From the IMG/VR virus record IMGVR_UViG_3300025543_000034, positions 1-54,412 of that record: a stretch of 54,412 bases of DNA; one strand, given 5' to 3'. Below are positions 36,084 through 54,251 of this stretch, piece by piece. This stretch comes from a virus (lineage: Duplodnaviria; Caudoviricetes). The number at the start of each line of letters is the position of its first letter. Within the stretch, counting starts at the first letter, position 1. The notes under the pieces are model-generated. The model worked only from the letters and a program-made list of their open reading frames with translations. It was not told where the DNA came from and did not search any database. A program made the position numbers and the translations under genes.

Positions 36084-39000
36084 TTAATTTTCTAATTGTT
36101 CTATTCTTAATTTTAAATTATCTATTATCTCTTGTTGTTCTTGCATAGCTTTTACAAGCATTGGAACTAAAACAGAGTATTTTACAGATTTATATACTTC
36201 ACCTTCTGGTCCATTTTCTATATCAGGTTGTTTATCTTCATCAACTAAACCAGGAAAAACATCTTCTACTTCTTGTGCTATTAAACCTATTTGTTTTAAA
36301 TTATCACCTCTAAAATTAAAGTTTTTAACTCTTAATTTTTTAATATCTTCTAGTTTTGGGGTAGCATCAACAACGTTTTCTTTTAATCTTATATCTGACA
36401 ATTGACCATAGCTGTTATTAAGGTTATTTATATTACCATTACCGTATATAATAATTGTATTTACGCTATTAGCTTGGTTAACCATCCAATACCAATTAGT
36501 TGCTGCGGTTTTAGAGGTATACATTAACATTTGCTCTACAGTTGTATTAGAATGTCCTTGTAATTTAAAAGGAACACCATTACTGGCTGTAGCTGTTAAA
36601 TGTAATGTGGCACTTGGAGACGCGTTATTTATACCAACTTCACCATTTGACTCAATATAAACTCTTCCTGAGCCATTAGTTCCTAATGTCATTTTGTTAT
36701 TACTGTGATCATAATCCACATAACCACCTAACCCATTTTCGTCTTCAAAATGAAAATGACCAACTGTTGAAGAGCTAGAGTTTAATATTAAATCAGAAGT
36801 ACCAGAAGTTGTCCCACATATTAAATTACCTGAAACCTGCAGTTTAGCATTAGGACTTGTCACACCTATTCCAACATCCCCATTTTGATCAATAGTTAAT
36901 CTTTGTTGAGGACTAGAACCTATACTGTTGCTAGAAGTAAAAAATTTTAATATACCACCACCACTAGATCCTTGACCGGGTCCTTGTGCTACTGAAGCTA
37001 TTATTTGAGAACTACAATATCCGTTTGTTGAGTCATCTTTTCCAACAAATTGAATAACTCCTAAATCATCACCTGCTGATATAACCGTTTCTTGATTTAC
37101 AAAAGTAGCAACCCCGGCAAAACCTCCTAAACCACTACTCATAAAACCTCCTATAACAAGATCACCATTACCATTAGCCCAATTAGTAGGAGAATATCCA
37201 TATGTTGGCTTATTTAATAATGTACTTTTTATAGATATAGAACCTGTATTTGTAGAACCAACTGATGAATTACCACTTGCAAATATTCTTCCGTTAACTT
37301 CTAACTCTCTACTAGGACTCGATGTTTGAATACCTAAACGCTTGTTGCTGTTGTCCCAATAAAAATCATTATCACCTGAAATATTGGTAGAGCTTGTCCA
37401 AAATGAAGCTTGACCAGCAGCACCTGTTCCTGTAACCGTTCCAGTGTTATTTGTAAAAGGTAAATCAGAAACATTAGCTCTAGATATTATTTCTTGATTA
37501 CTCGTTCCTAAATAAATAATTTCACCTTGTGTTGGCACTGTTGTTCCTCTATCATCTGCTGGACCATTTTTTATAAAGTTATTACTACCACTATAACTTA
37601 TATAATTTATATCAGCATTTATTTGAGTTGCTGGATTACCACTAAAATTAATTCCATTACCCGCTGTATATGTTGTATTATTATCTGTCCAAGGAACATT
37701 GACAAACATTTTTTCACTACTCAACTCAACAGGGTAATTTTTTCCGTTTTCAGAATAACCTATTTGGACGCCTCCTCTAGTTCCATTAGCAGCTAAAGGT
37801 AATGAGTAAACTGTATCAGGTGATGTTAGTGTCATTACAAATGGATCACTTGTACTGCCCACACCTGTAAGGTTTGTGCTTAACGCACCTGTTGCTGTTA
37901 CAAATTTTAAATATTTTGCGTCGTTAATAGTTTTATCATCATCACCAGAATCTCTTACATACCATTTTGTATTTTCTTGAGTATTTTCATATTCAGGTAT
38001 ATTTAAAACACCTGCGCTAAGCGTTGAAGCCCCTGAAGTTCCTGTTGTTGTTAAACTTGTTACAAGACCATCTCCAGTTCCAGCACCAATTTTTGTTCTA
38101 ATAGTCGCAGCTGTTACATTTGCGTTTCCAAACGACATATTTCCCTGCGCATCATCTACTATTATAGCTGGTAAACCTGTATCACTTATTGCTGTACTTG
38201 CTATTGTTATCGTGCCATTATTACCAGATATTGATATATCATTACCATCAGCAAAAGTAACTGTACTAGTAGAACTATCACTACCTGTTAAAGTTATTAC
38301 TTTAGTATTACCACTTCCTATAGTATATGTTGTATTATCATTATCTGAATAGCTAGGCACGTCCCACGTATTGTCTTTGCTTAAAAATCTTGTAGATGTA
38401 CTAGAAGTTCCATCAACAGCTGATAAATCTATAGTACCCATTGTTACAGCTCCTGTGGCTGTTGAATTTTCAGTAGCTGAAATATAAGTTCCATTAGTAT
38501 TTGTAAAAGTTTCTACACCTTGGTTGTCAGGTGGAGTAGCCCAAGTACCATCACCTTTTAAAAATTTAACATTATCCGCAGCTGCGGGAGCAGGCACTAA
38601 ACCTGATGTACCCGCGTTTGTACCATCAGCACCTGTAAACGCACTATATGTTGTTTCATTTACCCACGTGGCATCTCCTCTTAAAAATTTACCTTCTGCA
38701 CCAGCTGGTGGGGCTACAACTAAACCGCTTGTTCCAGCCGTATTAGCACTAGCTCCTGTAAAATTACTATATGTTGTGTTTGTATCTGGCGATGTCAATG
38801 TCATTACAAAATTACCAGCACTAGGTTCTGTTAATACTGTACCTAAAGGTCCTGTCGCAGTTACAAATTGTATTGTTTCTCCACTATCAACTACACTTGA
38901 AGCTGGATTTGTCGCATTGTCTTTTATAGTCCAATTATATGTTCCACCACTTGACCAAGGCACGTTAACAACCAATTGATCACTAGCATTTTTTGTTACA

Positions 39001-41105
39001 CCATAAGTTCTACCTGCCGTTTCTGATTGAGCTTCTGCAGCTGGTGTAGAACCAAAATCGTATCTAATTTTACCAAGACCAAGTGTGCTAGTAGTCATTG
39101 CACTGTATGTGGTATCTGTATCTACCCAAGGTACGTTAACAACTAAGTTACTACTATTGTTATCTAATTGTACTGCATAAGTTCTGTTAGCCGTTGTAGA
39201 TAAGCTTTCAGGTGCGTTACCAGCTGTTGCATCTACATTAACATCAAACTCTAATGTGTTTAATGTTAAACCAGTTCCAGCTGTATATTCTGTATTAGTA
39301 TCTGAAGCTGCAATAGTAAAGTTATTAGCATCAGTATATGTAAAAGTTATATTAGCACCTTTAACTATTTTTATGTCTTGCGTTCCACTTCCAGCACCAC
39401 TTAAAACTTTTCTTAATATTATATCGTTTGTAGATTGTTGCCAAGAGTTTGTATATATGTTTTGTGTATTAGTGTCTGTTGTATAAGCAGGCACCGCCCA
39501 AGTATTATTTTTTGTTAAGAATCTTTGTGATGTACCAGTATTGTTTCCATCAGCAGCACTTAGATCAGCTGTAACTGTTACAGCGCCTGTTGTTGCATTA
39601 TTAGGTGTTAAATCAATAAAAGTGCCATCAGTAGTTGTTATACTAGTTACACCGGAGTTTGTAGCCGGTACTCTAGTCCAAGCGGTTCCATCATAAACAG
39701 CCCAATCACCTAAATTCCACGTGCTAGGTGGGTTTGTACCACCATTAGGATATGCAGTTCCAGCCACATCACATATCCATAAAAAACCAGCACCTTTATT
39801 GGAAGCATCAGTTAAATCTGGTGTTCCACCGCCACCGCCTGAAGCATCCCAAGTTCCTTTAAACTGTAAACCAGTAGGTATTGCAGCCCAAGTTCCATCA
39901 CCTTTTAAATAAGTTGTTCCAGTTCCACCCTCTGGTACGTAACCTACGTTAGCCCCACCAACGTATTTTGCCGATGTTAATGTTAATTCTCTATTTGTTA
40001 TACTTTCCGAAAGAGGTGCACCTGTAGAATCTGCTGTAGCTAAAGTAACTCCAGTTACACCAGTGTCTGTACCAGTTAAAGTTATTGTATTTCCCGTTTG
40101 TGAAGCTGCAACATTTCCAGAACCTAGTATTAAAACAGTTCCACCACTATCACTTAATAATACACCAGAGTCAGTGTTGTCTGATCCAGTACCTGTAATA
40201 GTTTGAACAGTTTGAGTATCTGTCCAAGGTACGTTAACATACATTTGATCTGAGTCAAGCTCTACGGGATAATTTTTAGCATTTTCTGTATATCCAATTT
40301 TAACACCACCTAAATCTGAAGATGTAGCAACCGGTAATACATAAGGTGTGTCAGTCCAAGGAACGTTAACAAACATTTTTTCACTACTAAGTTCTACAGG
40401 ATAATTTTTACCGTTTTCTACATAACCTATTTGTACACCACCTCTTGTACCATCAGCAGCTAAAGGTAAAACATATGGTGTATCAGTCCAAGGAACATTT
40501 ACATAAGCTTGTTCATTGCTTAATACAACAGGGTAGTTTTTTGCATTTTGAGTGTAACCTATTTTTATACCACCAAGTGCTACAGTTGTTGCAACTGGTA
40601 AAACATATGGTGTTGGTATAGTTGGAAAAGTAACTAAGTTACCTAAACCATTTATATATTGAGCAGCTGTACCCGCACCTGTAACTGTTAACGTTCCAGA
40701 CTGAGTTATTGGTGAATTAGCCACTGTAAATGCAGCTGGCATTGACAAACCAACACTTGTCACACCTTGAGCAGCAACATTGACCCATTGCGTTCCTGTA
40801 GCTGTAGAACTTAACAACTGACCTGCTGTCCCTGGTTGATTGCTTGAATCATAGTATCCACCTGCAACTTTTAAACTATTAGATATAACAATAGAGTTAG
40901 TTGTTGTATTACCTATATTCGTAACTTGTTGCAGATTTTGTGCTGCACCTTGGGCCGCAACTAAATCAAGCAATGACCCAACCGTAAAACTAACTGTAGG
41001 ATTACCAACAACTGGATCCTGCGCATTTTCATCATAAGTTACAGTACCTATAAGTAAATCATCTCTTTTCGGTGTGTTTAAAGGATACGAATATATTATT
41101 GCCAT
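36084..41105 (-). CDS. Long tail fibre with C-terminal peptidase S74 intramolecular chaperone
   Basis: Thr/Gly-rich repeats, FLKGDGTW motifs, SDIRLKEN..GLIAQEVE..coiled-coil end. Confidence 0.85.
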   Translation of the reverse strand: MAIIYSYPLNTPKRDDLLIGTVTYDENAQDPVVGNPTVSFTVGSLLDLVAAQGAAQNLQQVTNIGNTTTNSIVISNSLKVAGGYYDSSNQPGTAGQLLSSTATGTQWVNVAAQGVTSVGLSMPAAFTVANSPITQSGTLTVTGAGTAAQYINGLGNLVTFPTIPTPYVLPVATTVALGGIKIGYTQNAKNYPVVLSNEQAYVNVPWTDTPYVLPLAADGTRGGVQIGYVENGKNYPVELSSEKMFVNVPWTDTPYVLPVATSSDLGGVKIGYTENAKNYPVELDSDQMYVNVPWTDTQTVQTITGTGSDNTDSGVLLSDSGGTVLILGSGNVAASQTGNTITLTGTDTGVTGVTLATADSTGAPLSESITNRELTLTSAKYVGGANVGYVPEGGTGTTYLKGDGTWAAIPTGLQFKGTWDASGGGGGTPDLTDASNKGAGFLWICDVAGTAYPNGGTNPPSTWNLGDWAVYDGTAWTRVPATNSGVTSITTTDGTFIDLTPNNATTGAVTVTADLSAADGNNTGTSQRFLTKNNTWAVPAYTTDTNTQNIYTNSWQQSTNDIILRKVLSGAGSGTQDIKIVKGANITFTYTDANNFTIAASDTNTEYTAGTGLTLNTLEFDVNVDATAGNAPESLSTTANRTYAVQLDNNSSNLVVNVPWVDTDTTYSAMTTSTLGLGKIRYDFGSTPAAEAQSETAGRTYGVTKNASDQLVVNVPWSSGGTYNWTIKDNATNPASSVVDSGETIQFVTATGPLGTVLTEPSAGNFVMTLTSPDTNTTYSNFTGASANTAGTSGLVVAPPAGAEGKFLRGDATWVNETTYSAFTGADGTNAGTSGLVPAPAAADNVKFLKGDGTWATPPDNQGVETFTNTNGTYISATENSTATGAVTMGTIDLSAVDGTSSTSTRFLSKDNTWDVPSYSDNDNTTYTIGSGNTKVITLTGSDSSTSTVTFADGNDISISGNNGTITIASTAISDTGLPAIIVDDAQGNMSFGNANVTAATIRTKIGAGTGDGLVTSLTTTGTSGASTLSAGVLNIPEYENTQENTKWYVRDSGDDDKTINDAKYLKFVTATGALSTNLTGVGSTSDPFVMTLTSPDTVYSLPLAANGTRGGVQIGYSENGKNYPVELSSEKMFVNVPWTDNNTTYTAGNGINFSGNPATQINADINYISYSGSNNFIKNGPADDRGTTVPTQGEIIYLGTSNQEIISRANVSDLPFTNNTGTVTGTGAAGQASFWTSSTNISGDNDFYWDNSNKRLGIQTSSPSRELEVNGRIFASGNSSVGSTNTGSISIKSTLLNKPTYGYSPTNWANGNGDLVIGGFMSSGLGGFAGVATFVNQETVISAGDDLGVIQFVGKDDSTNGYCSSQIIASVAQGPGQGSSGGGILKFFTSSNSIGSSPQQRLTIDQNGDVGIGVTSPNAKLQVSGNLICGTTSGTSDLILNSSSSTVGHFHFEDENGLGGYVDYDHSNNKMTLGTNGSGRVYIESNGEVGINNASPSATLHLTATASNGVPFKLQGHSNTTVEQMLMYTSKTAATNWYWMVNQANSVNTIIIYGNGNINNLNNSYGQLSDIRLKENVVDATPKLEDIKKLRVKNFNFRGDNLKQIGLIAQEVEDVFPGLVDEDKQPDIENGPEGEVYKSVKYSVLVPMLVKAMQEQQEIIDNLKLRIEQLEN
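37680..40620 (-). repeat. Repeated ~43-aa fibre module GGxxIGYxxNxKNYPVxLxxxxxxVNVPWTD
   Basis: Three tandem copies at about 40220-40610 and one at about 37685-37805; degenerate VNVPW copies near 38960 and 39130. Confidence 0.85.
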
Positions 41106-41106
41106 A

Positions 41107-44100
41107 TTATTTATTTTCTAATTCTTTTACTCTTGCTTCTAATTCTTGTACTGCCGCTACCAATAGTGGTACTAATTTAGCTTGATCTATACCTTGTGGT
41201 ATAATACCACCTTCTTCATCAACTTCATCTTTTTCTCCTACAATAGCTTCAGGAACTATATCTTGCACTTCATGTGCTATAAATCCATCTACTACTTTAC
41301 CAGGCTCTTCTATAAAATTAAATCTACTTGGTTTTAATTGATTAAGTCTAGATATAGAATCACTTATTGGAATAATATTTTCCTTTAATCTATAATCAGA
41401 ACTTGTAACATATGAAGTTGCTGAACCGGATGTAGATATTCGCCCTACATAAGCTTGACTTGTTCCTGGATTTTTATGGTAAAATTCTATTTGATTAGTT
41501 CCAAATTGATTACTACCAAACATCATTATATTTGCAGCTGTATCAGGAACATAAAACATACTATTTCCACCACTAGCAAAAAAGTTACTTGCAGCAAATC
41601 TAGCTGTAAATACATTAGTAATTGTGGTTGTAGGCCCAGTATGTAAAGTTGTTTGCGGAGATGTATTTCCAATCCCTACGTTTCCATCATTCAACACGGT
41701 CATTTTTGTAGAATAAGTAGTTCCATCATAGCTACCAATAGTTAATACACCTTGCCCAGTTGAGGTTTTGTTTGGAAAATAAATACTATGTTCATAAGCA
41801 GCACCACCCATATCTGTACCTAAACCCATCCAAGCATCTGCATCCGCATCTAAACCATAAGTTTGTATTCTTGGGCCACCAAAGAAAGCTCCACTGACCA
41901 TAATAGCAGGTGTAGCAGCATTAACTTTAGCTACTGATAATCTATAATCTGGACTTGTATCTCCAATCCCGACATTACCGCCAGATAGTATAGACATTCT
42001 TTGTATGCCAGATGTAGCAAAAACTAAATTTTGAGCTTCAGTGGTCCACAAAAAAGCATGAGAATCATTAACACCTAATCTTAATCCGTGAGTTTGTGTA
42101 CCTCTTGTAATCTTCATTCCAATATTACCACTAGCGGATGAAGTATGTAAATTTAATTTATCTTGAGGCGAATTCGTCCCGATTCCTACGTTGCCTCCAC
42201 CTTTAACTACCATTCTTGCAACACCACTTGTTCCTAAAACAACAAAGTCTTGTCCATTTCTAGGCTCAACAACTAAATTACCAGATGTTCCCGTAAATGG
42301 ATATGCACTACCCGTATTTTCAGTAGAGTATATTGTAGAATATGTTAAATTAGAAGCCGCTACTATATTATTTCTAATACCTATTCTTCCTCCATTTATA
42401 TCTAATTTACTAGCAGGCGAAGAAACTCCAATTCCTAAGTTCCCTCCTAATACATTTATAAAACTATTAGCACCATCATTTGTTAATCTATAAGCGTAAT
42501 TACCTTGTGGACTTGTGTCAAAACCTGCTAAATATCCAGAAACAAAAATACTTCCTCTAACGTCTAATTTAGTTAGTGGACCAGTCGTTCCAATTCCTAC
42601 ATTATAATCAGAAGCAAATTTACCCATTGTAAGCATATTGGTTATATTACCACCTGATGAAATTACATCAAAATATGCAACCTCTCTATCGCCATCTTTT
42701 CTTCCAGCTTTTATTAATAAACCTCTGTCATTTGAATGATTAATAAGTATTGCTGAACCAGTATTATTACTATCGTTTCCTGCTTGAAATCTAGCTGCTA
42801 AATTATAAGTGCCTGCTGTGCTTGGGCCAACAACGTGTAGCTTTGGGACATTTATTGTTAAATCACCATCATTAGGCGATGTAGTTCCGATTCCTACGTT
42901 ACCATCACCGTTGATACGCATTCTTTCTGCATTATTAGTTCTAAAAGCCATATGGTTGTCAGCGTGGTCATAACTAATTCTACCAATATCATTATCACTT
43001 GCATCACCAAAATCAATAAAAGTTTCTAAGCCGTCAGCACAATTAAATCTTAAACCATCTTGGTCAGCGTGGCTAATGTTTAATTTCATATTTGGCGAAG
43101 GAGTTCCAATTCCTACGTTTCCAGAACTGTCTATACGCATTCTTTCTGAACCATTTGTTACTATTCTATAAGGATGATTAGATAAAGTACCATTAGTCAT
43201 TCCATTAGTCGAATCAGGATAAATATAAGCATCGACAGAATTATCTGAACTTCTTAATCTTATTCCCCCTGCTTTTGAAGTGACTGTACCTTTTATATGT
43301 AAAGTTGTAGCACCAGATGAAATTGAAGATGGGTCTGTTTCATTTATTCCTACATTCCCTCCAGAAGCTATACGCATTCTTTCTGCTCCCCCAGTATAAA
43401 ATTTCATTGGTACACTTCCGTCAGCAAGCAAACTTACTTCATCACTATCAGTATATACTCTAAAAAATCTTGTACCATCGCCGAATCTTGCAACATTACC
43501 TGAAACTTGTACGTCTAATTTATGTGCAGGCGAAGTCGTTCCGATACCTACGTTCTGATTAAAATAAGTATTACCATTTTGCAGCATTACCATATGATAG
43601 TAATTAGCAGTACCTAATCTATACGATTCATCAGCTAAAACTAAAGCAGAACCCATTACAGTATCGGTTGCTGGTTTTGTAATAAATAAACCTGATCTTG
43701 TGTTTTCTGACCTTAATTGCAAAGAAGCATCTGTATTTCTTTTTAAATAATTTAAACCATTTGCTGTTATAGGTCCATAAAAAGTAGATGTAGCACTAGT
43801 GCCATATGCAAAATTTGAACCACCATAAACTGAAAGACCTTGGTTAGGGGTACTAGTTTCTCCTTGGCCCCAACCTGCCGGATTTCCAATACCTACTTTG
43901 TTATATAAATGCATGAACTCATTGGTAAATTGGCCTCTAGCACCTTTAAAATGTATAGATTCAGAAGCTGTAAATGAAGTTAATGTTGAAAAAGTTTTAT
44001 TGGCGGTTATTGTTTGAGCTGTACCAATGGTTACATAAGGACCACCTGGTGGACTCAAATTGTCTACATAATCTTTAGTTGCAAAATTTGCAGCAGCAGT

Positions 44101-44613
44101 AGGTGTTATACCACTTACTAATCCTGTAAAAGTTGTAGTGCCTCCAGTGGTCATCTCCATTATGTTTGTAGTGTTATGCCTTATACTAAACAAATTAGAG
44201 TTTGCTGCTGGATACCTAACTAATGTCCATTGACCAACGCCACTTCCACTTGTTCCACTAACTGCACCAAGAACTAAACTAGAATAATCATTAGAACCAG
44301 GAAACATTCTAATGTTTTCATTATAACTATTACCATTTGATATTTGAACCGTTGAAAAGGTTGCGGTTGTTCCAGTTAAAACTCCACCAACAGTAAATGA
44401 TATACCAGAAGCCGTAGCTGTAGCACCAGTAAGCGTACCTCCAGATAAAGGTAAATACGGTCCACCAATAACGGTTGAAGCGTCAACCCAAGTTGGGGCT
44501 GCATTACCGTTTGATTTTAATATCTGTCCACTAGTTCCATGAGATGTACTGAATAGTATAGCCCCAGTGGAATGGACGTCAAATAATCCGTTTATATTAG
44601 ATAATGATGCCAT
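41107..44613 (-). CDS. Tail fibre with GNVGIGT modules and S74 chaperone
   Basis: About nine GNVGIG-type repeats; SDYRLKEN..GFIAHEVQ. Confidence 0.85.
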   Translation of the reverse strand: MASLSNINGLFDVHSTGAILFSTSHGTSGQILKSNGNAAPTWVDASTVIGGPYLPLSGGTLTGATATASGISFTVGGVLTGTTATFSTVQISNGNSYNENIRMFPGSNDYSSLVLGAVSGTSGSGVGQWTLVRYPAANSNLFSIRHNTTNIMEMTTGGTTTFTGLVSGITPTAAANFATKDYVDNLSPPGGPYVTIGTAQTITANKTFSTLTSFTASESIHFKGARGQFTNEFMHLYNKVGIGNPAGWGQGETSTPNQGLSVYGGSNFAYGTSATSTFYGPITANGLNYLKRNTDASLQLRSENTRSGLFITKPATDTVMGSALVLADESYRLGTANYYHMVMLQNGNTYFNQNVGIGTTSPAHKLDVQVSGNVARFGDGTRFFRVYTDSDEVSLLADGSVPMKFYTGGAERMRIASGGNVGINETDPSSISSGATTLHIKGTVTSKAGGIRLRSSDNSVDAYIYPDSTNGMTNGTLSNHPYRIVTNGSERMRIDSSGNVGIGTPSPNMKLNISHADQDGLRFNCADGLETFIDFGDASDNDIGRISYDHADNHMAFRTNNAERMRINGDGNVGIGTTSPNDGDLTINVPKLHVVGPSTAGTYNLAARFQAGNDSNNTGSAILINHSNDRGLLIKAGRKDGDREVAYFDVISSGGNITNMLTMGKFASDYNVGIGTTGPLTKLDVRGSIFVSGYLAGFDTSPQGNYAYRLTNDGANSFINVLGGNLGIGVSSPASKLDINGGRIGIRNNIVAASNLTYSTIYSTENTGSAYPFTGTSGNLVVEPRNGQDFVVLGTSGVARMVVKGGGNVGIGTNSPQDKLNLHTSSASGNIGMKITRGTQTHGLRLGVNDSHAFLWTTEAQNLVFATSGIQRMSILSGGNVGIGDTSPDYRLSVAKVNAATPAIMVSGAFFGGPRIQTYGLDADADAWMGLGTDMGGAAYEHSIYFPNKTSTGQGVLTIGSYDGTTYSTKMTVLNDGNVGIGNTSPQTTLHTGPTTTITNVFTARFAASNFFASGGNSMFYVPDTAANIMMFGSNQFGTNQIEFYHKNPGTSQAYVGRISTSGSATSYVTSSDYRLKENIIPISDSISRLNQLKPSRFNFIEEPGKVVDGFIAHEVQDIVPEAIVGEKDEVDEEGGIIPQGIDQAKLVPLLVAAVQELEARVKELENK

Positions 44614-46728
44614 TTATACTTTTCTTGTTAATCTTAATATCTGACCACTACCAACTGTTCCTGCATAACCACTTACTGTTAAATAAATAACTGATTGGTC
44701 TTTATTAGCAATTGATTGCTCATCACTAGCACTTCCATTATATAACATATAAACATTTAAATTTAATTGAATATTACTTGATCCTCCTCCGTCTTGTGCA
44801 GTTACATGTTTTGTTATTCTTAAAAACACTGATTTTGCAAATGTATAATCAACTGCAATAGTAATTAAACCTGCTTGTAAACTTCTGTAAGCGGCTGAAC
44901 CAGCTGCATTTGGATTTCCTTGTAGATAATATTCATAAATTCCTGGTTCTGGTATTAAAGTGGTTTGTACGACAGAAGATGAACCACTCGTTGCTGTTTG
45001 AGGCCAAAGTCTATTAAAAGTTCCACCATTAGAATCTATAGAAAATAATGCTGTTCCATCACTATAACCTAAACCATTCTTTAAAAAAGTAAAACTCCTT
45101 CCAGTTGCTCCCGCACTTCCTACTTGAAATGCCATAGATTGTTGTGTTGAAATAGTTGCATTATCCGCACCAGTTGCTCCACCTCTTAACTCTAAAGTTG
45201 AAGTTGTACTTCCTCCACCATAAACAGTTAATGTACTGCTAGGCGATGTCGTTCCGATTCCTACAGATATACTTCCAGCGCCAGAGTTTGTAAAATTAAC
45301 TGTTCTTGGTTGGCCACTACTCCATCCTATTTGTGCTATTGTTCCTTGTGATTGTATTTGAAATATACTTGAACCGTAAGTATACATCAATAATGATGTT
45401 GAATTACCCGCGGTTGTTTCTAATAAAAGCTGTCCAGAAGTAGGGTTTATAACAGCCGAATCAGTTCCAAAATGAACTGAACCATTCACGTGCAATTTAG
45501 CATTAGGGGATGTCGTCCCGATCCCGACGTTGCCGCCTGATAGGATAGTCATTTTTGGTGAATTATTTGTTCCAAAAGTTAATGGATGGTTTGATATTGC
45601 AGTTAAATTTAATCCTCCAGTATCCATTGCCAAATACCCTTTAGTAGAATCTGTAAAACCTGAAAGCCATATACTTGAACCTGACGATGGATTACTTACT
45701 TCTAAAGCTGTATACCCACTTCCTACTGGTCTTGGCGAAGTTGTTCCGATCCCGACGTTGCCTGATGAGTCTATTACCATAACATTAGAACCACCTCCGT
45801 TGACTCTAAATCTAACTCCATTGCCTGTTGCTGCATTTATGTAAATTCCGTCAGTTGTATTTGTTGCTGCAAAAATTCTATTGTAACCATTTGCATTGCT
45901 TCCAAAAGCAAATGTTCTATATGGATTTCCAAATGTTTGGTCACTTCCTATTATTGTTCCGTTTACTGCAACGTTACCTGTAAAATTACCGGTTGTTCCA
46001 TTTAAAGCTCCCCCAAAAGTTACATTTCCTGAAAAAGTTGCGTTTTGACTATCATCTAAAAGTAATGCTCTTGTTAATGCTGATCCTGATTCTGTAAAAA
46101 ATCCTAAGCTACTTTTAGCTGAAGTTGTTCTAAGTGCTTGTATTCTTGACATAAATCTGTTAGCAGTGTCATTAGAGCTTGATTTAAAATCAATATTATA
46201 ACCTCCACTATCATCTATATTGTTATTGTCAAAAAGAAGTTGTGTTTCAGGAGATGTTTGTGATCCTGATATATTTGCTATTGTAACAGCTTTTGCAAAA
46301 GTTGCGTTTCCAACGCTATTTATAGTTAATCTTGTAGTTGAACTTGTTTCTAGTTTTAAATTAGCCGAAGATGAATTTGATGTTATTTTAAAATCAGTGC
46401 CATCAAAATGTAAATTTGCATTTCCTGAAGAAGCAGTTGGAATATTAATATTGCCACTATTACCTACGGTTACATTTCCTCCAAAAGTAGAGTTTCCAGA
46501 ACTGTCTATAACTAATCTATCTGCATTTGCTGCAACATCAAATAAACTAAAAGCACTAGCACCAGATATAGCAAATCTATATGTTTTTTGACCAGTTCTA
46601 GTCATATCAATCATATCAGCTCCAGCTGACTCAATATCTAATTCACTTGGCCCTGTATTGTTTTTATTTATTCCTACGCCTGAGCTAGATACTCGTAATA
46701 TATTATTTATATTTGATAAATTTGCCAT
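44614..46728 (-). CDS. Tail fibre/spike with GNVGIGT modules, no S74
   Basis: MANLSNINN start; three VGIGTTSP repeats; distinct beta C-terminal domain. Confidence 0.75.
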   Translation of the reverse strand: MANLSNINNILRVSSSGVGINKNNTGPSELDIESAGADMIDMTRTGQKTYRFAISGASAFSLFDVAANADRLVIDSSGNSTFGGNVTVGNSGNINIPTASSGNANLHFDGTDFKITSNSSSANLKLETSSTTRLTINSVGNATFAKAVTIANISGSQTSPETQLLFDNNNIDDSGGYNIDFKSSSNDTANRFMSRIQALRTTSAKSSLGFFTESGSALTRALLLDDSQNATFSGNVTFGGALNGTTGNFTGNVAVNGTIIGSDQTFGNPYRTFAFGSNANGYNRIFAATNTTDGIYINAATGNGVRFRVNGGGSNVMVIDSSGNVGIGTTSPRPVGSGYTALEVSNPSSGSSIWLSGFTDSTKGYLAMDTGGLNLTAISNHPLTFGTNNSPKMTILSGGNVGIGTTSPNAKLHVNGSVHFGTDSAVINPTSGQLLLETTAGNSTSLLMYTYGSSIFQIQSQGTIAQIGWSSGQPRTVNFTNSGAGSISVGIGTTSPSSTLTVYGGGSTTSTLELRGGATGADNATISTQQSMAFQVGSAGATGRSFTFLKNGLGYSDGTALFSIDSNGGTFNRLWPQTATSGSSSVVQTTLIPEPGIYEYYLQGNPNAAGSAAYRSLQAGLITIAVDYTFAKSVFLRITKHVTAQDGGGSSNIQLNLNVYMLYNGSASDEQSIANKDQSVIYLTVSGYAGTVGSGQILRLTRKV

Positions 46729-48566
46729 TATTTGCTTTTAAGTAATTCTATTTCAGCTTTTAGTTCTTGTATTGCTTTTATAAGCATAGGAACGAATACT
46801 GAATACTTAACTGATTTTGTTATTTCCTCACTATTTTTTTCTTTTGTATTTTCTACTAAACTTGGAAAAACTTTTTCAATTTCCTGCGCTATAACCCCTA
46901 TCTGTTTATTGTCATCTCCTATTAAATTAAAGTTCCGAATCTTAACTTTCATTAAATCATTTAATTTAGGGGTAGCATCAACTATGTTTTCTTTTAACCT
47001 TGCATCTGAAATAGCTCCATACGAGTTATTTTGATTTTGAACATTACCATTTCCCCAAATAATAAGCCTATTAGCAGAGCTATCACTACAAAGGAAAAAA
47101 TAATTATCTGTTATATTTGGAGCTACTTGAGAATATCTTATTTGTAGTCCATAAGGAACAGTTCCTTTGTGTGTGAATTTAGCTATTTGACCTCCATTAG
47201 AATTACTTACTAACTCATGCACAGTTGAGGTAGCGTTGTCATACGAACCATTATTACTTGCTTTTAAAAACCCCGCAGAATTTATACGCATTTTTTCTGT
47301 TGCCGCTGTTGTTTGCGTACCACCGGGATTTGTCCAAAAACTTAAAGCTGTAGCTGAGTTTCTTGAACTACCAGCTTCATTAACAATTGCAATTCTTCCT
47401 GCATCTAATTGACCTTGATTATTAGAATCATCTACTGTAGAAAATCCTAAATAACCATTTGAAGCATTACCTGTTGTTAAGCTTTGTCGAACAGCAACTA
47501 ATTGTAAAATAGAATGATAAGCATTATCAGTCATTTCTTTAGAAATAATACTTACTGTTGATGTTTGGATTGTAGAATTAAATCCACTACCAGTATCTCT
47601 TACTACGAATTTATTTTGAACTGTAGTCGTCCCGATCCCGACATTGCCGGAATTTAAAACTGTTACAAAAGCATTATTAGCTCTTGCAGCTTCTGTATTT
47701 AAAGAAGCATTTGTTGCACGACCAATAATAAACCTGTCTGCGTTATTATAAGTAGTTCCTGTGTACCAAGTTGTGTCTGTTCCTTGATTATACATAAATA
47801 CTCCTTGACCTCTAACTTCTGGAGTAGATTCATTAGAACTTTGTAATGTAATAGCACCTTGTGTATAATTTGATCCATTTCCGTTAAAATAAGCTGCTAT
47901 ACCACCGCCAGTGTTTACCGTAAGCCTTCCTGTTGCAGTTACATTTCCTGCAAAAGTTGCTCCCCCTGTATGTGTAAAAGTTATTTTTGGTGTTGTAGCT
48001 GCATTATGGTAAAAGTTTAGAATAGTACTTGCACCATTTGTTGCGCCTATATCCCAATAACTTGATGCGCCAGTATTTTCTATTATTCTTAATGCAGAAT
48101 GTAACCCAGCTGAAACTGTTGTAGAATAAGCATTAATTGTTGCTGCCGCGGTTGATCCTGTGCCTGCTACAACTTTTCCTGATAGGTATATGTCTTTAAA
48201 ACGTATAAGATCTCTACCTAAGCTGATATTAGAACTATAAGCATTAGTAGTCATGTTATGAGGGGTAAGAACGTCTCTAATTGAATCAAAGAAAACACCA
48301 GTAGTACCAGAACCAATTGCTATTCTTCCTGATAAAGAATTTATTGCCCCGTCTGTTAAGGTGTCGTGTTGAAATCTTATGATTTCACCATCAGTGCCTA
48401 ACCTATTAAATCTAGCTACAGTATCTCCACTAACAGTTGGATTAATATCACCCGTACTCATTATTTGAGTACCAACGGTTGCATTATTTGCAGCTGTTTT
48501 ACCAATTAATACATTACCTCCAGTTGTTACTAGGAACTTATTATTTATATTAGATAAATTAGCCAT
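46728..48566 (-). CDS. Tail fibre with S74 chaperone
   Basis: MANLSNINN start; SDARLKENIVDATPKL..GVIAQEIE. Confidence 0.85.
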   Translation of the reverse strand: MANLSNINNKFLVTTGGNVLIGKTAANNATVGTQIMSTGDINPTVSGDTVARFNRLGTDGEIIRFQHDTLTDGAINSLSGRIAIGSGTTGVFFDSIRDVLTPHNMTTNAYSSNISLGRDLIRFKDIYLSGKVVAGTGSTAAATINAYSTTVSAGLHSALRIIENTGASSYWDIGATNGASTILNFYHNAATTPKITFTHTGGATFAGNVTATGRLTVNTGGGIAAYFNGNGSNYTQGAITLQSSNESTPEVRGQGVFMYNQGTDTTWYTGTTYNNADRFIIGRATNASLNTEAARANNAFVTVLNSGNVGIGTTTVQNKFVVRDTGSGFNSTIQTSTVSIISKEMTDNAYHSILQLVAVRQSLTTGNASNGYLGFSTVDDSNNQGQLDAGRIAIVNEAGSSRNSATALSFWTNPGGTQTTAATEKMRINSAGFLKASNNGSYDNATSTVHELVSNSNGGQIAKFTHKGTVPYGLQIRYSQVAPNITDNYFFLCSDSSANRLIIWGNGNVQNQNNSYGAISDARLKENIVDATPKLNDLMKVKIRNFNLIGDDNKQIGVIAQEIEKVFPSLVENTKEKNSEEITKSVKYSVFVPMLIKAIQELKAEIELLKSK

Positions 48567-48574
48567 ATTTTATT

Positions 48575-51500
48575 TTAATTCATTACAACTGTTGCATTGT
48601 TTTGTCCAAAACCTAAGTCAATTGTAATACCTATTTTCTGTGCACCAAGACCAGTTGGTGTTATAGTACATTTTATTCTTGTATTAGATGTGTCATCTTC
48701 AAAAGCTACTGTAAAATCATTTGAACCATCTGGTCCTGTATCTAATATTTTATTATATATTGGAAATCCTGGTCCATATGTGCAAACAACTGTATATTTT
48801 TTTGCAACAGCACAAACTGTAGATGTATCACTAGTAAGCATTACATCAAATACCATAGAACCTGTTGTTGCTCTATCTATTGTAAAAGCGACTCCTGCTA
48901 CACCAGCATTTCCAGTTGTATATAGTTTAGTAAATTGTCCGCCTTTACCTGTTCCACCACCACCACCACCATGGATTATATGACCATCAACAGTTAAGTT
49001 ACCGTCGATTTCTACGTTACCTGTAAAAGTTGAATCCTTGTAAAAAGTTATAGTGTCAGCAGTGTCTTCTGTAAATCTCATAAATTCAGAACCACCAACG
49101 AAAAATCTTAATCTATCAGCTATGTCTTCAGAAATATAAGTATTACCTCCATTATCAAAAAATAGTTGACTACCAGTTGCTATATTTACATTTCCTGTAA
49201 AAGTACCAGCTCCTGTTACAGTAACCCCTGTACTTGTAGTTGCAAACTTTACTACATTATTAAAATAAAGTTGTACTGCATCATCTGTGTCAGCCCTTAA
49301 CATTTGCTCACTACCTGCTGCGTTTAATACCCTAAAAGTATCTGTTTTAATTAAAAGACCACCTGTACTATTTATTATTTGGCTATTAGTTCCATCGTGG
49401 TAGATTTGAAGGTCTTGCGATGCGCCAAATTTAATCTTACCATTAGCACCGTCATTGTACATCAATATATCTTTATTGACCATTAATGATGTAATTCCAC
49501 CATCTAATCTTAAGTATTCAGTAACACCACCACTACCATCATCGTTTCTAAATATTATATCTCCGTCATCAGTATTTTGTGTAAAATATAAATCACCTGT
49601 ATAATTTTCTATGTTACTGTTATTTGTAGTACCGTTGTGATATAATCTAAGATCATCAGAAGTACCAAATTTAGCTTTTTTATCATCATCCCACTTTACA
49701 TCTTGTAAAAACCTACTTTGAGCTTGACCACCATCTAATTGAAAATAAATAGTATCTCCACCTGATCCATCATCTGAAGCAAAGCTAATATCTCCATCAT
49801 CTTGCAATTGTGTAAACTGTAAGTTACCTGTTAGGTTTGTTATTTGAGAGTCTGTTCCATTATGTTGAATACTTAAATCATTTCCAGCGCCAAACTTTAC
49901 AGCTTGACTATCAGCCATAAGTATATCATTAGCACCTGATGTATTACCAACAGCTAATACTGCTGATAAAGATCTAGCAGGGTCTAATGCAATTAAGTTT
50001 GCAACTGTAGTTTTCTTTATGTTATTATCTGTAGCATCACTAAACCAAACCGTGTCTGTTGTAGCAATCGCATTTTCTTGAGGCGCTGATAATATAGCAT
50101 TGTCAGTACCTAAATAATCTATAGCTACAGTAGGATCTGCAGCGGTACCACCAATTGTAATACCAGTTCCAGCTGTTACACTTGTAACTGTACCTGTAGT
50201 AGGTGTTGTCCATGTGTTAACTGAAGCAGAGCCACCACCTGATGTTAGTACTTGACCAGCTGTACCGTAAGTGTTAGCGCCTAAACTAATTCCTTCGTTT
50301 ATTCTAACCGCTTCTTCAAATACAGCAGGACCTTTAACAGTTGTACTATCTGTATCAGCATCACCAAGCGTTGTATTACCTTCAACTACTAAATTACCAG
50401 AGTTGCCTATAGTAACAGTAGAACCATCATCAGCTATTAGACCAGTTGCTAAAGTATTAGATCCAGTCCATTTAGCTATTTTATTTGCTGTACCACTTCC
50501 AAGTATAGCAGAAGTGTTATCTATTTTTTGCCAAGTATCAGTTGCCCCGACTTCTACAAATATAGCCCAGTCACCAACTTGCCAATCTGTAATACCATCT
50601 AAGTTCGTAGTACCAGCAACGCTTACAATATAAAATTCACCTGTAACACCAGTACCACTAGTAAGCGTCGGTGTATTAGTACTAGCATTCCATGTTCCTT
50701 TATATACAAGACCTTGTGGTATACCAGTGATTTGACCTTGTAATTTTGCCATTGCATCAAGTATGCTATCAGACGCGGCGATTGCAGCAGATGTTGGAGT
50801 AGGTAAGTTTGTTAAAACTTTACTAGTAACAGTTGTATCAGCTATTGTAGTTGCTATATTAAGTGCACCACCTGATGTATAAGTATAAGGACCACCGGTT
50901 GATGTTGTGTCACCCGTAAGCGCTATTGCTCCAGAAGTAGCTAAAGCTGTCGCTGTACTCGCATTACCAGTTAAAGCACCTACAAAAACAGTGGATGTAA
51001 TACTTGCATAACCTGTGTATGTACCAGCTGAACCAGTAAATGTACCATCTGTTAATACACCACCAACTTCTAATTCACCACCTATAGCTACTTTACCAGT
51101 TGCACCACCTGCAAACGTAAAACCTGCAGCACCTGTCAATGTATCAGTGTCAGACCAGTATGTAACTTGATTAGCTGCACCAGAACCATCTGGCACACCT
51201 GTGGTAGCAATTGTTAAATCATAGTTAGCAGCATCCCAAGTTGTTGTTATATTAGTACCATCGGTTACAGTCATTGCTGTACCGCTTGGTATACTAGTTC
51301 CTTCGTAACTCCAAGTGTATAAAGGTAGTTCAGTCACCCAGTTTGTACCAGAACCTGTAGAAGATAATATTTGACCTGCAGTTCCTACATCACCACTTGA
51401 ATCTGTATATGTACCTGAGTTTACTAAGCTAGCAAATGTACCTGATGTTGTAGCTTGAAAAGCTCCAGTTACCTTAGCACCACCTGCTAATGTTTCTATT

Positions 51501-52285
51501 TTCTTATCACCCGCATGGTATAATTCTACAGCACCAGCAGCGCTAGCACTTATTGTTTGAGTTGTATCTGCTTCATCTCTTACAGATAATAAACTAGTTT
51601 GTAATTTTAAAGCACCAGGACTTCTGTCTATTACTATACTATTAGCACTATCACTGTATATTTCAAAGTTATCAACAGCTGTAGTACCCATTAATATTTT
51701 CGATGTGTCAGTAAAAGTAATATCGTCACCTGCAGAAACCACTATATCAGAACCACCAGTCGTATTACCATTAGCTAATACCTCTTGTAATGTATCGTAC
51801 AGCCCTACTTTATTATCTACATATGTTTTAATAGCTAGCGTACTTACTACATTGTCATTTTGAGCTCCAGTTAAATTAGAGTTAGTTATTAAACCAGTTC
51901 CAGATATTGGACCACTTATAACTAAAGCGCTTAATGTACCTAGCGATGTAATGTTTGGTTGAGCAGGTGTTGCTATCGTACCTGTAAATTCAGTAGATGT
52001 TATGTTTGTAAATCCAGTACCTGTTGTTCCAGATACTGTTACGCCTCCTGTTGTCACAAAACCTCCACCTCTAAAAGAGTTGTTTGTTAAGTTTATATCT
52101 ACACCTGTAGCTGTATTACCAAGATTTAAAACAAACTGCAAATCTCCAGTTGCTGTTGTTACAAGATCAATAATACTTTGTACTGTGAAATTTTTTGTGG
52201 GTTTACCAGGCACACTAACATCTGTTCCTAATACAAGGTCTGTTTTTTCTGGAGTAACCGTAGGATATGAATATATTATCGCCAT
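48575..52285 (-). CDS. Long tail fibre/spike
   Basis: MAIIYSYP start; LQEVLANGNTT, KGTWNASTNTPTL and FG...DL.IYH.GT.S.I repeats. Confidence 0.8.
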   Translation of the reverse strand: MAIIYSYPTVTPEKTDLVLGTDVSVPGKPTKNFTVQSIIDLVTTATGDLQFVLNLGNTATGVDINLTNNSFRGGGFVTTGGVTVSGTTGTGFTNITSTEFTGTIATPAQPNITSLGTLSALVISGPISGTGLITNSNLTGAQNDNVVSTLAIKTYVDNKVGLYDTLQEVLANGNTTGGSDIVVSAGDDITFTDTSKILMGTTAVDNFEIYSDSANSIVIDRSPGALKLQTSLLSVRDEADTTQTISASAAGAVELYHAGDKKIETLAGGAKVTGAFQATTSGTFASLVNSGTYTDSSGDVGTAGQILSSTGSGTNWVTELPLYTWSYEGTSIPSGTAMTVTDGTNITTTWDAANYDLTIATTGVPDGSGAANQVTYWSDTDTLTGAAGFTFAGGATGKVAIGGELEVGGVLTDGTFTGSAGTYTGYASITSTVFVGALTGNASTATALATSGAIALTGDTTSTGGPYTYTSGGALNIATTIADTTVTSKVLTNLPTPTSAAIAASDSILDAMAKLQGQITGIPQGLVYKGTWNASTNTPTLTSGTGVTGEFYIVSVAGTTNLDGITDWQVGDWAIFVEVGATDTWQKIDNTSAILGSGTANKIAKWTGSNTLATGLIADDGSTVTIGNSGNLVVEGNTTLGDADTDSTTVKGPAVFEEAVRINEGISLGANTYGTAGQVLTSGGGSASVNTWTTPTTGTVTSVTAGTGITIGGTAADPTVAIDYLGTDNAILSAPQENAIATTDTVWFSDATDNNIKKTTVANLIALDPARSLSAVLAVGNTSGANDILMADSQAVKFGAGNDLSIQHNGTDSQITNLTGNLQFTQLQDDGDISFASDDGSGGDTIYFQLDGGQAQSRFLQDVKWDDDKKAKFGTSDDLRLYHNGTTNNSNIENYTGDLYFTQNTDDGDIIFRNDDGSGGVTEYLRLDGGITSLMVNKDILMYNDGANGKIKFGASQDLQIYHDGTNSQIINSTGGLLIKTDTFRVLNAAGSEQMLRADTDDAVQLYFNNVVKFATTSTGVTVTGAGTFTGNVNIATGSQLFFDNGGNTYISEDIADRLRFFVGGSEFMRFTEDTADTITFYKDSTFTGNVEIDGNLTVDGHIIHGGGGGGTGKGGQFTKLYTTGNAGVAGVAFTIDRATTGSMVFDVMLTSDTSTVCAVAKKYTVVCTYGPGFPIYNKILDTGPDGSNDFTVAFEDDTSNTRIKCTITPTGLGAQKIGITIDLGFGQNNATVVMN

Positions 52286-52910: not shown

Positions 52911-52970
52911 TTTTCTTTTTTTTATTGCATTATTCTAAAACGGGCTTGTGTTGAAGCGCGCTATGGTTAG

Positions 52971-52999
52971 TAATATTACAGGTTTTGCACTGATTTTAC
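52971..52999 (-). promoter_or_regulatory. Putative late promoter at the head of the structural block
   Basis: GTAA-N16-GTAATATTA. Confidence 0.55.
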
Positions 53000-53216
53000 T
53001 ACTATATAGAGACGTATATCCCAATAGTGTGACAATAGCCTGTTACTATTATACCTTAATAGCCTTATGTCACAGTTTTCATTCTGAAAAGCTGTTATTT
53101 ATATAGAAGTATTGTGTTGCTACTATCCTCCTGACTATCAGCCTGTTACGGAAAACGCATATTTTTTAGCCCACGGGCCTCTTTTTCTCACTATTTCACA
53201 AAAATGTTTTACCTTT

Positions 53217-53252
53217 TTACAAACATAATACGACTACATGTAGATAATATAA
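53217..53252 (+). promoter_or_regulatory. Putative early promoter, copy 1
   Basis: TTACAAAC-AT-AATACGA-CTACATGT-AGATAATATAA. Confidence 0.8.
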
Positions 53253-53277
53253 ATGTAACTAAAAAACAATATACAAT

Positions 53278-53415
53278 ATGACTAATCATTTAAACAATCA
53301 AGATATTCTCACTCAAATCAGAATACTATTTCCATACGACAATACAATGTGTAAAGAAAAGTACAATGAAACAATACAAGATTATCTATATGAAGAAATA
53401 ATAAGTAAATTGTAG
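53278..53415 (+). CDS. Small early protein (not in ORF track)
   Basis: MTNHLNNQDILTQIRILFPYDNTMCKEKYNETIQDYLYEEIISKL downstream of motif copy 1. Confidence 0.55.
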   Translation: MTNHLNNQDILTQIRILFPYDNTMCKEKYNETIQDYLYEEIISKL

Positions 53416-53503
53416 TAATTAATTAAATATAATGTAAGTTAATTAGCACTCGCGTGCCATACCTCTTACACACTAATGTTAACTAAACAAATATACACTA
53501 ACA

Positions 53504-53539
53504 TTACAAACTAAATACGACAACAACAAGATAATATAA
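53504..53539 (+). promoter_or_regulatory. Putative early promoter, copy 2
   Basis: TTACAAAC-TA-AATACGA-CAACAACA-AGATAATATAA. Confidence 0.8.
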
Positions 53540-53570
53540 ATGTAAACTAATAATAAATAAATATAATAAT

Positions 53571-53798
53571 ATGAGTAATTTAATTTCAAAAAGATTTGTC
53601 ATCAGACAGTCACTAGTAGGTAAAAATGTAACTATCGAATTCACTAACAAAAAAGGTAAAAAGTATGTGTACAATCACGACAAAGCGTACAACATTATGA
53701 AAAGTAATCTAGAAAAAATGGCGTGTTTCAACAAATACAAGTCTTACACTGCAACTAATAATATTCCAGTTGTACTACGTGATAAAGAATTAGTGTAG
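53571..53798 (+). CDS. Small basic early protein
   Basis: 75-aa ORF after motif copy 2 with an A-rich leader. Confidence 0.75.
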   Translation: MSNLISKRFVIRQSLVGKNVTIEFTNKKGKKYVYNHDKAYNIMKSNLEKMACFNKYKSYTATNNIPVVLRDKELV

Positions 53799-53850
53799 TC
53801 ACTACTGCGAGTTCCACTTGTTTCTAACAGTATAAATTGCGAACAAGTAA

Positions 53851-53891
53851 TGACATAATGGTTTATGTGAGTTCGATTCTCACCATGTCAA
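53851..53891 (+). ncRNA. tRNA-like minihelix (acceptor-like stem plus T-arm)
   Basis: TGACAT/ATGTCA stem enclosing GTGAG-TTCGATT-CTCAC. Confidence 0.55.
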
Positions 53892-53913
53892 CTAACAATA
53901 TAAATATAATAAT

Positions 53914-54048
53914 ATGAGATGGACACTTAATACCCATTACGCTAAAGATATAGATCTTACTTGGGCAATAGTTCGCCAAATGTCTGGTGAACTAACAAGA
54001 GCAGACGTAGAAGGCATAATTTTAACACACCAATTTAATTCAATATAA
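53914..54048 (+). CDS. Small early protein (not in ORF track)
   Basis: MRWTLNTHYAKDIDLTWAIVRQMSGELTRADVEGIILTHQFNSI; same 18-nt start context as 53571. Confidence 0.6.
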   Translation: MRWTLNTHYAKDIDLTWAIVRQMSGELTRADVEGIILTHQFNSI

Positions 54049-54049
54049 T

Positions 54050-54244
54050 ATGGAAGAAATAAAAACATTTACAGGTGCAGAACTAGAAACGATGTTAAAA
54101 ATGGATGAAGCGATCAACGCTGTTCATAATCATGAAGTATTTATGCATCACTTACCAGATAACGGTTCACTAATACTATCAATAATAAACACTATTGCAT
54201 TAATATATGTAATTTACAAACAGAATACGAATAAAGTAAGATAA
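54050..54244 (+). CDS. Small early protein with C-terminal TM segment
   Basis: LILSIINTIALIYVIY hydrophobic stretch. Confidence 0.6.
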   Translation: MEEIKTFTGAELETMLKMDEAINAVHNHEVFMHHLPDNGSLILSIINTIALIYVIYKQNTNKVR

Positions 54245-54249
54245 TATAA
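54214..54249 (+). promoter_or_regulatory. Putative early promoter, copy 3
   Basis: TTACAAAC-AG-AATACGA-ATAAAGTA-AGATAATATAA. Confidence 0.8.
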
Positions 54250-54251
54250 GT

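Follow-up and report, generated by a model that had tools for sequence, protein, structure and literature searches.

A recurring, probably structural motif in adjacent phage tail-fibre genes and its association with natural mosaic junctions

Fibre genes, motif copies and mosaic junctions

Tail fibres decide which bacteria a phage infects. Here, we describe a short protein motif that recurs through three adjacent tail-fibre genes of a tailed phage, represented by the viral record IMGVR_UViG_3300025543_000034. The whole stretch analysed, hereafter the window, comprises 54,412 bases of this single record, which is an estimated ~85% complete. Five large fibre genes lie in a row (36084-52285), and the motif concerns the middle three, all encoded on the minus strand. 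Fibre gene 1 (P0001; 41107..44613; 1168 aa) begins with an N-terminal anchor (MASLSNIN) and ends in a Peptidase_S74 chaperone (residues 1072-1123 match PF13884, E 2.9e-10). From residue 353 onward, it is divided into nine motif-bounded modules. Fibre gene 2 (P0002; 44614..46728; 704 aa) has the anchor MANLSNIN and is without an S74 domain; it has a shaft in which a second repeat motif occurs, and three strong motifs of the GNVGIGT type. Fibre gene 3 (P0003; 46728..48566; 612 aa) shares the MANLSNIN anchor, has a single motif at residue 307, and again ends in a Peptidase_S74 chaperone (PF13884, E 9.8e-12).

The 12 sites reported for these genes in the initial annotation are all present on the minus strand and encode G-N-V-G-I-G-T-x-S-P. 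A degenerate DNA pattern finds 10 matches, compared with 0.08 expected from shuffled sequence. A peptide search recovers 16 loose copies, comprising 13 strong copies in the three genes, one weak copy, and two degenerate copies in the next gene. Those missed by the initial annotation lie at 43330-43359, 46654-46683 (weak), and 36852-36881 and 36615-36644 (the degenerate pair). The motif is also longer than the reported core, with the full form (E-R-M-R-I-x3-)G-N-V-G-I-G-T-x-S-P-x2-K-L; several copies have E-R-M-R-I-x3 before the core and x2-K-L-x-V after it. Copies are spaced 54-99 residues apart and are all direct, with none inverted. The segments between them are unrelated to each other, as had been claimed (64 of 66 interior pairs give z < 3 in pairwise sequence comparison). 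The motif is thus common to all modules although their interiors differ, and these interiors, though unrelated, align to a common outline. Recent tandem duplication is an unlikely source of the shared DNA, because the module interiors are unrelated.

In gene 1, the motif copies are numbered from the N terminus. Motif 1 (QNVGIGTTSP; 43528..43557) uses ACG for its first Thr and TCG for the Ser of SP, codons whose rarity is treated below. Motif 2 (GNVGINETDP; 43330..43359) is a variant. Extended motifs 3 (ERMRIDSS plus GNVGIGTPSP; 43093..43149, core 43093-43122) and 4 (ERMRINGD plus GNVGIGTTSP; 42874..42930, core 42874-42903) both have CGT in the ERMRI part together with TCG. They are followed by motif 5 (YNVGIGTTGP; 42577..42606; ACG), motif 6 (GNLGIGVSSP; 42415..42444; TCG), motif 7 (GNVGIGTNSP; 42166..42195; ACG and TCG), motif 8 (GNVGIGDTSP; 41950..41979), and motif 9 (GNVGIGNTSP; 41656..41685). 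The three strong copies of gene 2 are ISVGIGTTSP (45241..45270; ACG and TCG) and two of GNVGIGTTSP, one with the G/C-rich haplotype GTC, GGG, ATC, GGG, ACG (45505..45534) and one with GTC, GGG, ATC, and TCG (45733..45762). The gene 3 copy (GNVGIGTTTV; 47619..47648) also has the G/C-rich haplotype.

The protein of gene 1 has an exact match to the solved Bdellovibrio fibre Bd2133 (PDB 8OND_A; E 5.7e-8) over ERMRI...G-N-x-G-x-G-T, together with a weaker match to 8OML. In the published portions that we drew on, Bdellovibrio fibres are described as intertwined trimeric beta-helices with "capping loops" on the helix edges (PMC10769870). These loops have the consensus V-G-..-G/N-small-x-x-P-x-x-x-L, recur along the shaft (96 residues apart in Bd3182), and are present in fibres with or without an S74 chaperone (same portions of PMC10769870). 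All 13 strong motif copies fit the capping-loop consensus, and the match to the 8OND_A loops holds residue by residue. Judged by this resemblance, the motif is a predicted structural protein element, the capping loop of trimeric beta-helix fibres. Each inter-motif segment is best read as one putative beta-helix module, with the motif as its border. The motif would mark module borders because the capping loop sits on the edge of the beta-helix module in the solved relatives; both the beta-helix fold and this placement are inferred here from the 8OND_A match and the published description.

Relatives were gathered from viral contigs and metagenome contigs, and their DNA was compared with that of the three genes. 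Breakpoints were defined as the ends of matches of at least 85% identity and at least 100 nucleotides (nt), after dropping ends at locus edges or gene termini; junction events were counted as distinct where the outside flanks differed. The 61 usable match ends represent 50 distinct junction events. Half of these (25 of 50) fall inside the 57-nt extended motif, which occupies 10.7% of three-gene positions (p about 5e-12), and 28 of 50 lie no more than 6 nt from it. Within the repeat-bearing part of gene 1, every junction event is no more than 12 nt from a motif. In an earlier, smaller set, 15 of 39 match ends lay no more than 10 nt from a core. Breakpoints are thus non-randomly placed relative to the motif. 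This distribution supports the proposal of the initial annotation that motif copies act as crossover points at which fibre modules are swapped between phages. Its further proposal, that modules are gained and lost within one phage, is not shown by these data, where the only such joints, in metagenome contigs, had sides of less than 31 nt, too short to be reliable.

At base level, identity rises abruptly within the motif, from the random level to 90-100%, in relatives L009-L012, L029, L030, L021, and L016. Junctions occur in the ERMRI part and at the start, interior, and end of the core. They keep the length and register of the motif, with no insertions or deletions at the border. In gene 1, a 94% match to L159 ends at 43516, beside motif 1. 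At motif 3, a 97.6% match to L021 starts at 43123, with further junctions at 43089 and 43157. Motif 4 has junctions at 42931, 42927, 42914, 42901, and 42903. Matches to L016, L028, and L175 end at 42577-42587 in motif 5, while a 93% match to L162 starts at 42435 in motif 6 and a 93% match to the same locus ends at 42176 in motif 7. In gene 3, the motif forms a junction with a cassette at 47260-47645; the matches to L029 (93.5%) and L030 (90.6%) start at 47645, and identity upstream is at the random level.

The clearest exchanged unit is the C-terminal cassette of gene 1, comprising the tip and the S74 chaperone (41107..41655, minus strand), which has 92-99% DNA identity with many contigs. Motif 9 is the point at which the matched stretch (41104-41685) meets no fewer than 15 different upstream contexts. 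Cassette identity begins at the codon after SP, and the silent sites of the motif, together with some of its residues, vary among the 15 contexts. Conserved parts of L012, the closest relative, are 87-94% identical; in the fibre region, it shares islands only.

A second shaft motif, of the S-V-G-N-A-T-F type (S-x-G-N-A/S-T-F-x-G-x-V), lies in gene 2 at 46282..46311 on the minus strand, with a sister copy at 46468-46497. These copies coincide with the ends of 82-88% DNA matches at 46305-46312 (four loci) and 46482-46492 (two loci), and three N-terminal junction clusters coincide with its G-N-(A/S)-T-F part. A third string resembling this motif is found near 46019-46028. The N-terminal 200-250 nt of the fibre genes have 85-90% DNA identity with relatives that differ downstream (44373-44617, 46482-46738).

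Among the sequencing runs listed, the stretch is present in 20 runs from 10 studies. Four metagenome runs were compared, all as Logan contigs. Candidate excised circles and deletions between motif copies in these four runs had joints with sides of only 21-30 nt, below the reliability mark, and were not counted. Loose contig ends fall at motif edges in 13 of the 24 listed (642 in all), and unitigs break at shared words anyway; at the gene 2 motif 45505..45534, unitigs overlap at 45512-45541. Summed contig depth in the bins 43099-43347 and 44344-44592 is 4-20 times that of neighbouring bins. The module at 42931-43089 and the N-terminal anchor therefore appear common to many community members.

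Codon haplotypes within the motif

The initial annotation had counted TCG for the Ser of SP in 7 of 12 sites and ACG for the first Thr in 6 of 12, and both counts are correct. These codons are rare in the genome, where TCG accounts for 40 of 1298 Ser codons (3%) and ACG for 79 of 1438 Thr codons (5%). The same applies to ATC (69 of 1060 Ile codons; 7%) and GTC (37 of 1070 Val codons; 3%), and overall G+C at third codon positions (GC3) is 0.16. Across codons 0-8 of the 16 loose motif copies, 55 of 144 codons end in G or C, compared with 19.8 expected. The two flanking blocks of eight codons each match expectation (15 versus 16.4 and 16 versus 16.9). Relative to random draws, the codon rarity score of the motif is z = -10.5. 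Junction codon use is thus strongly different from the genomic background, as predicted. The pattern extends into the ERMRI part, where the second Arg is CGT in three of three copies, compared with 32 of 536 Arg codons genome-wide.

This bias is not a general trait of conserved residues. Invariant columns of the three S74 domains have 10 G/C-ending codons versus 10.6 expected (n = 78), and the shared N-terminal block has 4 versus 4.5, with no excess in either. Since both controls are at expectation, the anomaly is specific to the motif. Dipeptide context was likewise rejected as a cause: it accounts only for GGA before Thr, and fails for AAC before Val, GTC or ATC before Gly, and ACG before Thr.

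The claim that the junctions are conserved at the DNA level was overstated. Copies in the window have a mean core identity of 66%, and their shared runs have a median length of 8 nt and a maximum of 18 nt. Since none reaches 23 nt, the motif would serve classical homologous recombination poorly here. The copies agree in their codons (0.445) only as much as random draws from the genome's own usage do (0.436). Compared with some partners (e.g., L021), the motif of the window is identical throughout. The quasi-palindrome described for the core is complete in two copies only (45534 and 47648), where it follows from the V-G-I-G-T codons and forms no fold. RNA structure was considered and rejected: the twelve 60-nt motif stretches show no folding advantage over shuffled sequence (z -1.7 to +1.7) and have no common structure. 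There are no Rfam matches in 41000-48600.

We find that the unusual codons are not confined to the window. The rare haplotype also occurs in relatives L012, L010, L009, and L030, which have a similarly A/T-rich background (z -12.9 to -5.6). L003, L005, and L001 have a very uniform allele of common codons, with a homogeneity of z 16-19 in L003 and L005, far above chance, and 5.5 in L001. Since some clades use common A/T-ending codons in the motif, and since some loci depart downward in GC3, a universal force towards rare or G/C-ending codons was ruled out. The Val and Gly codons are linked as haplotypes (GTC-GGG versus GTA-GGA, counts 18/5/2/27, p 2e-7).

A pattern scan blind to third codon positions recovered 120 further loci on viral contigs (L034-L153), and codon preferences were tallied in 118 independent loci with 209 exact copies. 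These loci differ widely in GC3, and show position-specific synonymous preferences and two main nucleotide haplotypes. The first Gly is GGC at a frequency of 0.45 versus 0.20; at the third Gly, GGG is preferred and GGT is avoided. For the first Thr, ACG reaches 0.32 versus 0.14, with ACC depleted. The Ser is AGT at 0.53 versus 0.22 and TCG at 0.16 versus 0.08. The three Gly positions and the two Thr positions each behave differently. That one amino acid prefers different codons according to its position in the motif argues against a cause at the level of tRNAs or translational accuracy. Among 13 loci with at least seven copies, 12 depart from their own codon usage, eight of them upward in GC3 and four downward, which argues for haplotypes that travel or are copied. 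The rare codons thus belong to position-specific haplotypes, found in more than 100 unrelated viral contigs and decoupled from the codon usage of each genome.

Genome context and recombination genes

The initial annotation noted that no recombinase or reverse transcriptase is visible in the window, and none was found with PHROGs on 30 open reading frames (ORFs) or Pfam on 11. Profile searches for RecA, RecT, ERF, Rad52, and YqaJ found nothing in the window record. Related records were also negative for RecA (five searched) and for RecT, Rad52, and YqaJ (four searched). ERF (PF04404), on the other hand, was found above its cut-off, with scores of 93 and 100 bits, in two of the four complete relatives that were searched, one of them the closest. 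This closest relative (G001, the record of L012) continues ~10 kb past the end of the window, and its ERF-family gene (L033) lies ~7 kb beyond the point that matches the window end. The lack of a recombinase in the window therefore says little, because the record is only ~85% complete and two of four complete relatives encode Erf.

In the accessible part of the literature on phage annealing proteins, Erf recombines 78%-identical substrates as well as Red-beta does, and minimal pairing segments are given as 23-27 bp for Red-beta and 31-34 bp for RecA (PMC3945230). The runs shared among window copies are shorter than either.

Besides the fibres, the window encodes a portal, a large terminase, virion proteins, a holin, an endolysin, GroEL, and GroES-like proteins. 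GroEL and the two GroES-like genes (33709-35268, 33465-33725, and 27291-27896) adjoin the lysis and fibre genes. The terminase best matches that of an uncultured virus (63% identity), and its next-best matches, at ~44%, are from Flavobacterium, Cellulophaga, Tenacibaculum, and Maribacter phages. Because of this resemblance, we take it to be a phage of Flavobacteriia-type hosts; it is podovirus-like. A search of the phage collection with the three fibre genes returned 22 records, none covering 80%, and thus no close relative.

The window has a G+C content of ~0.32, and CpG is strongly depleted throughout (observed/expected 0.53), whereas GpC is not (1.25). All 37 called ORFs lie on the minus strand. 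The last 1.5 kb (52911-54412), where the record stops, has small plus-strand ORFs only. A 2508-aa ORF at 1468-8994 has no PHROGs or Pfam match, and no tRNA genes were found in the window.

The two outer fibre genes flank the motif-bearing three on the same strand. P0004 (36084..41105; 1673 aa) has the anchor MAIIYSYP, an S74 chaperone, and the two degenerate motif copies; P0005 (48575..52285; 1236 aa) has the same anchor and no motif. Only two types of N terminus therefore occur among the five fibres (MAIIYSYP twice and MA(S/N)LSNIN three times). P0001, P0003, and P0004 score above the cut-off of PF13884, which P0002 and P0005 lack. The translation of P0004 also has at least four copies of a ~45-residue repeat (P-Y-V-L-P...G-G-x-x-I-G-Y...N-Y-P-V...V-N-V-P-W-T-D), seen in translation only, as well as further internal repeats.

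Interpretation and relation to known systems

We are fairly confident that the motif is a border between structural modules and, at the same time, a site at which phages exchange them. The motif is the only stretch common to otherwise unrelated modules, and would for this reason be the place where exchange occurs or survives. Under this proposal, related phages in one cell would exchange DNA at the motif, or their exchanges would survive there. Crossovers within the ~57-nt extended motif would attach whole modules, or the cassette of tip and chaperone, in register to new shafts. We infer that exchange is guided by short shared DNA together with an Erf-type protein. The likely enzyme would be a phage single-strand annealing protein of this type, tolerant of short and diverged homology, with host RecA possibly helping. 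Selection would then retain only those chimeras that fold. Copying of junction DNA between modules and phages may outpace its recoding by mutation pressure. That the odd codons are a by-product of such repeated exchange or conversion within the motif is a tentative suggestion, though the likeliest cause. Taken as a whole, the combination of a structural border, homology-guided exchange of the Erf type, and conversion-derived codons seems to us reasonably probable.

Several observations weigh against this combined reading. The other junction events (22 of 50) are more than 6 nt from a motif, and lie mostly in the motif-free N-terminal parts. Local alignments can run on through the conserved motif, which pulls match ends toward it by up to ~30 nt. 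At motif 9, a fixed structural border fits the data as well as a crossover inside the motif does. More generally, illegitimate recombination combined with selection for folding would likewise place breakpoints at domain borders. The copies in the window share at most 18 identical bases, and their codon agreement is not above chance; the L003, L005, and L088 clades use common A/T-ending codons in the motif. Erf was found neither in the window nor in two of the other complete relatives searched, and no direct recombinant molecule was seen in the contigs of the four metagenome runs.

An explanation at the protein level alone we consider doubtful, while giving it more weight than any other alternative. 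It holds that the motif is kept for beta-helix folding, that recombination is illegitimate or random, and that only in-register chimeras joined at a border survive; the codons would then reflect a founder effect or a translation-level preference unrelated to recombination. The structural role of the motif is documented by the 8OND_A match and the portions of PMC10769870 consulted. The short shared runs and chance-level codon agreement also speak for this explanation, as do the 15 contexts in which the cassette border immediately follows a motif whose silent sites vary, and the second, different shaft motif, which meets match ends as a structure-defined border should. It fits less well with the retention of motif length and register at all junctions without border insertions or deletions, or with junctions that spread over the whole conserved 57 nt and not into adjoining non-conserved codons. 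Also against it are a codon anomaly confined to the motif and absent from other invariant blocks, Gly and Thr positions with different codon preferences, which a tRNA or accuracy effect does not predict, and synonymous variants linked as haplotypes.

A strong form of the DNA-level role proposed in the initial annotation holds that selection keeps the nucleotide string itself as a recombination signal, a shared adaptor that improves the odds of gaining new modules, which would account for its resistance to A/T pressure. Its G/C- and CpG-rich codons stand in a genome depleted of CpG, the rare haplotype recurs in relatives with an A/T-rich background, and a nucleotide consensus recurs across 118 loci of very different GC3. 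The ~30-nt core is also near the minimal pairing segment quoted for annealing proteins in the accessible part of PMC3945230. The step from codon anomaly to DNA-level function is nonetheless not supported, given a motif of structural character, window copies only 66% identical with no more than 18 identical bases in a run, and silent sites that agree at chance. In addition, whole clades carry a different, A/T-rich allele, silent sites within the motif vary from one to another of the 15 contexts joined to the cassette, and at the junction they diverge more than the cassette does (6 of 30 versus ~5% in the flank). Second-order selection for evolvability is, moreover, weak in theory. We therefore regard selection on the string as improbable. 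We are scarcely less sceptical of a form in which the capping-loop string is a shared recombination adaptor, with one or two haplotypes kept against codon bias across the phages of different hosts. If it were true, a structural motif would double as a DNA-level crossover signal, and the common haplotype would let a phage splice in fibre modules from a community pool. A dedicated site-specific system (a shufflon-type invertase, a diversity-generating retroelement, or a motif-cutting nuclease) would account for many copies of a short repeat inside receptor-binding genes. Such a system is very hard to credit here, with every copy direct, no recombinase, reverse transcriptase, or nuclease family among the scanned window ORFs, no RNA family or fold, and copies too different to serve as one recognition site.

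Several known systems resemble this locus in part. T-even adhesin genes, in the published portion consulted, likewise have short conserved peptide motifs (the His boxes of gp37 and the glycine-rich motifs of gp38) between hypervariable receptor-binding segments, and exchange at conserved fibre-gene motifs is known from these phages (PMC3157838). Our locus differs from them in motif, fold, and phage group, with S74-type fibres of a predicted beta-helix fold in a podovirus assigned to Flavobacteriia-type hosts. The units exchanged here are whole modules of 54-99 residues and a tip-plus-chaperone cassette, and exchange is known here from natural mosaics alone. An anomalous silent-site pattern is not mentioned for the T-even system in that portion of the literature.

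The present fibres are linked to S74 phage fibres and to the mosaic adhesive trimer (MAT) fibres of Bdellovibrio (8OND, 8OML) by direct sequence match, by the capping-loop consensus, by a presumed trimeric beta-helix, and by an optional S74 chaperone. The family is described as mosaic or chimeric, with T5 pb1 and the K1F endosialidase named as members, in the consulted portions of PMC10769870. In contrast to our locus, the Bdellovibrio fibres are bacterial surface structures treated at the protein level, and those portions hold nothing on DNA breakpoints or codons.

Putative recombination hotspots in receptor-binding proteins of Klebsiella and E. coli phages are likewise short high-identity segments, common to proteins that otherwise differ and read as preferred recombination substrates (bioRxiv 10.64898/2026.05.12.724579, citing Pas et al.; partial text). 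The same text places those segments within the first 100 residues, at the border of the anchor, whereas the motif described here occurs up to nine times per gene, deep in the shaft. A further parallel is with Rad52-like annealing proteins (Red-beta, Erf, Sak), given the ERF-family gene in complete relatives. Such phage proteins recombine short, diverged sequences and create mosaics, as stated in the accessible part of PMC3945230. The runs shared here are at most 18 nt, below the 23-27 bp of Red-beta, and the window is without Erf. Unlike shufflons and diversity-generating retroelements, the locus has only direct repeats, and neither recombinase nor reverse transcriptase families turned up among the window ORFs scanned.

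In the library searched, no paper contained the peptide string, so no previous account spelled in this way came to light. Motif-based exchange in T-even fibre genes and the capping loop at the protein level were already known; a clean map of natural junctions and the silent-site pattern are added here. The locus provides a test bed for asking whether recombination shapes the silent sites of a structural motif. It also provides a base-level map of natural fibre-module exchange in a widespread aquatic phage group, tied to a probable structural element, and yields a rule on the points at which modules in this family of fibres can be joined.

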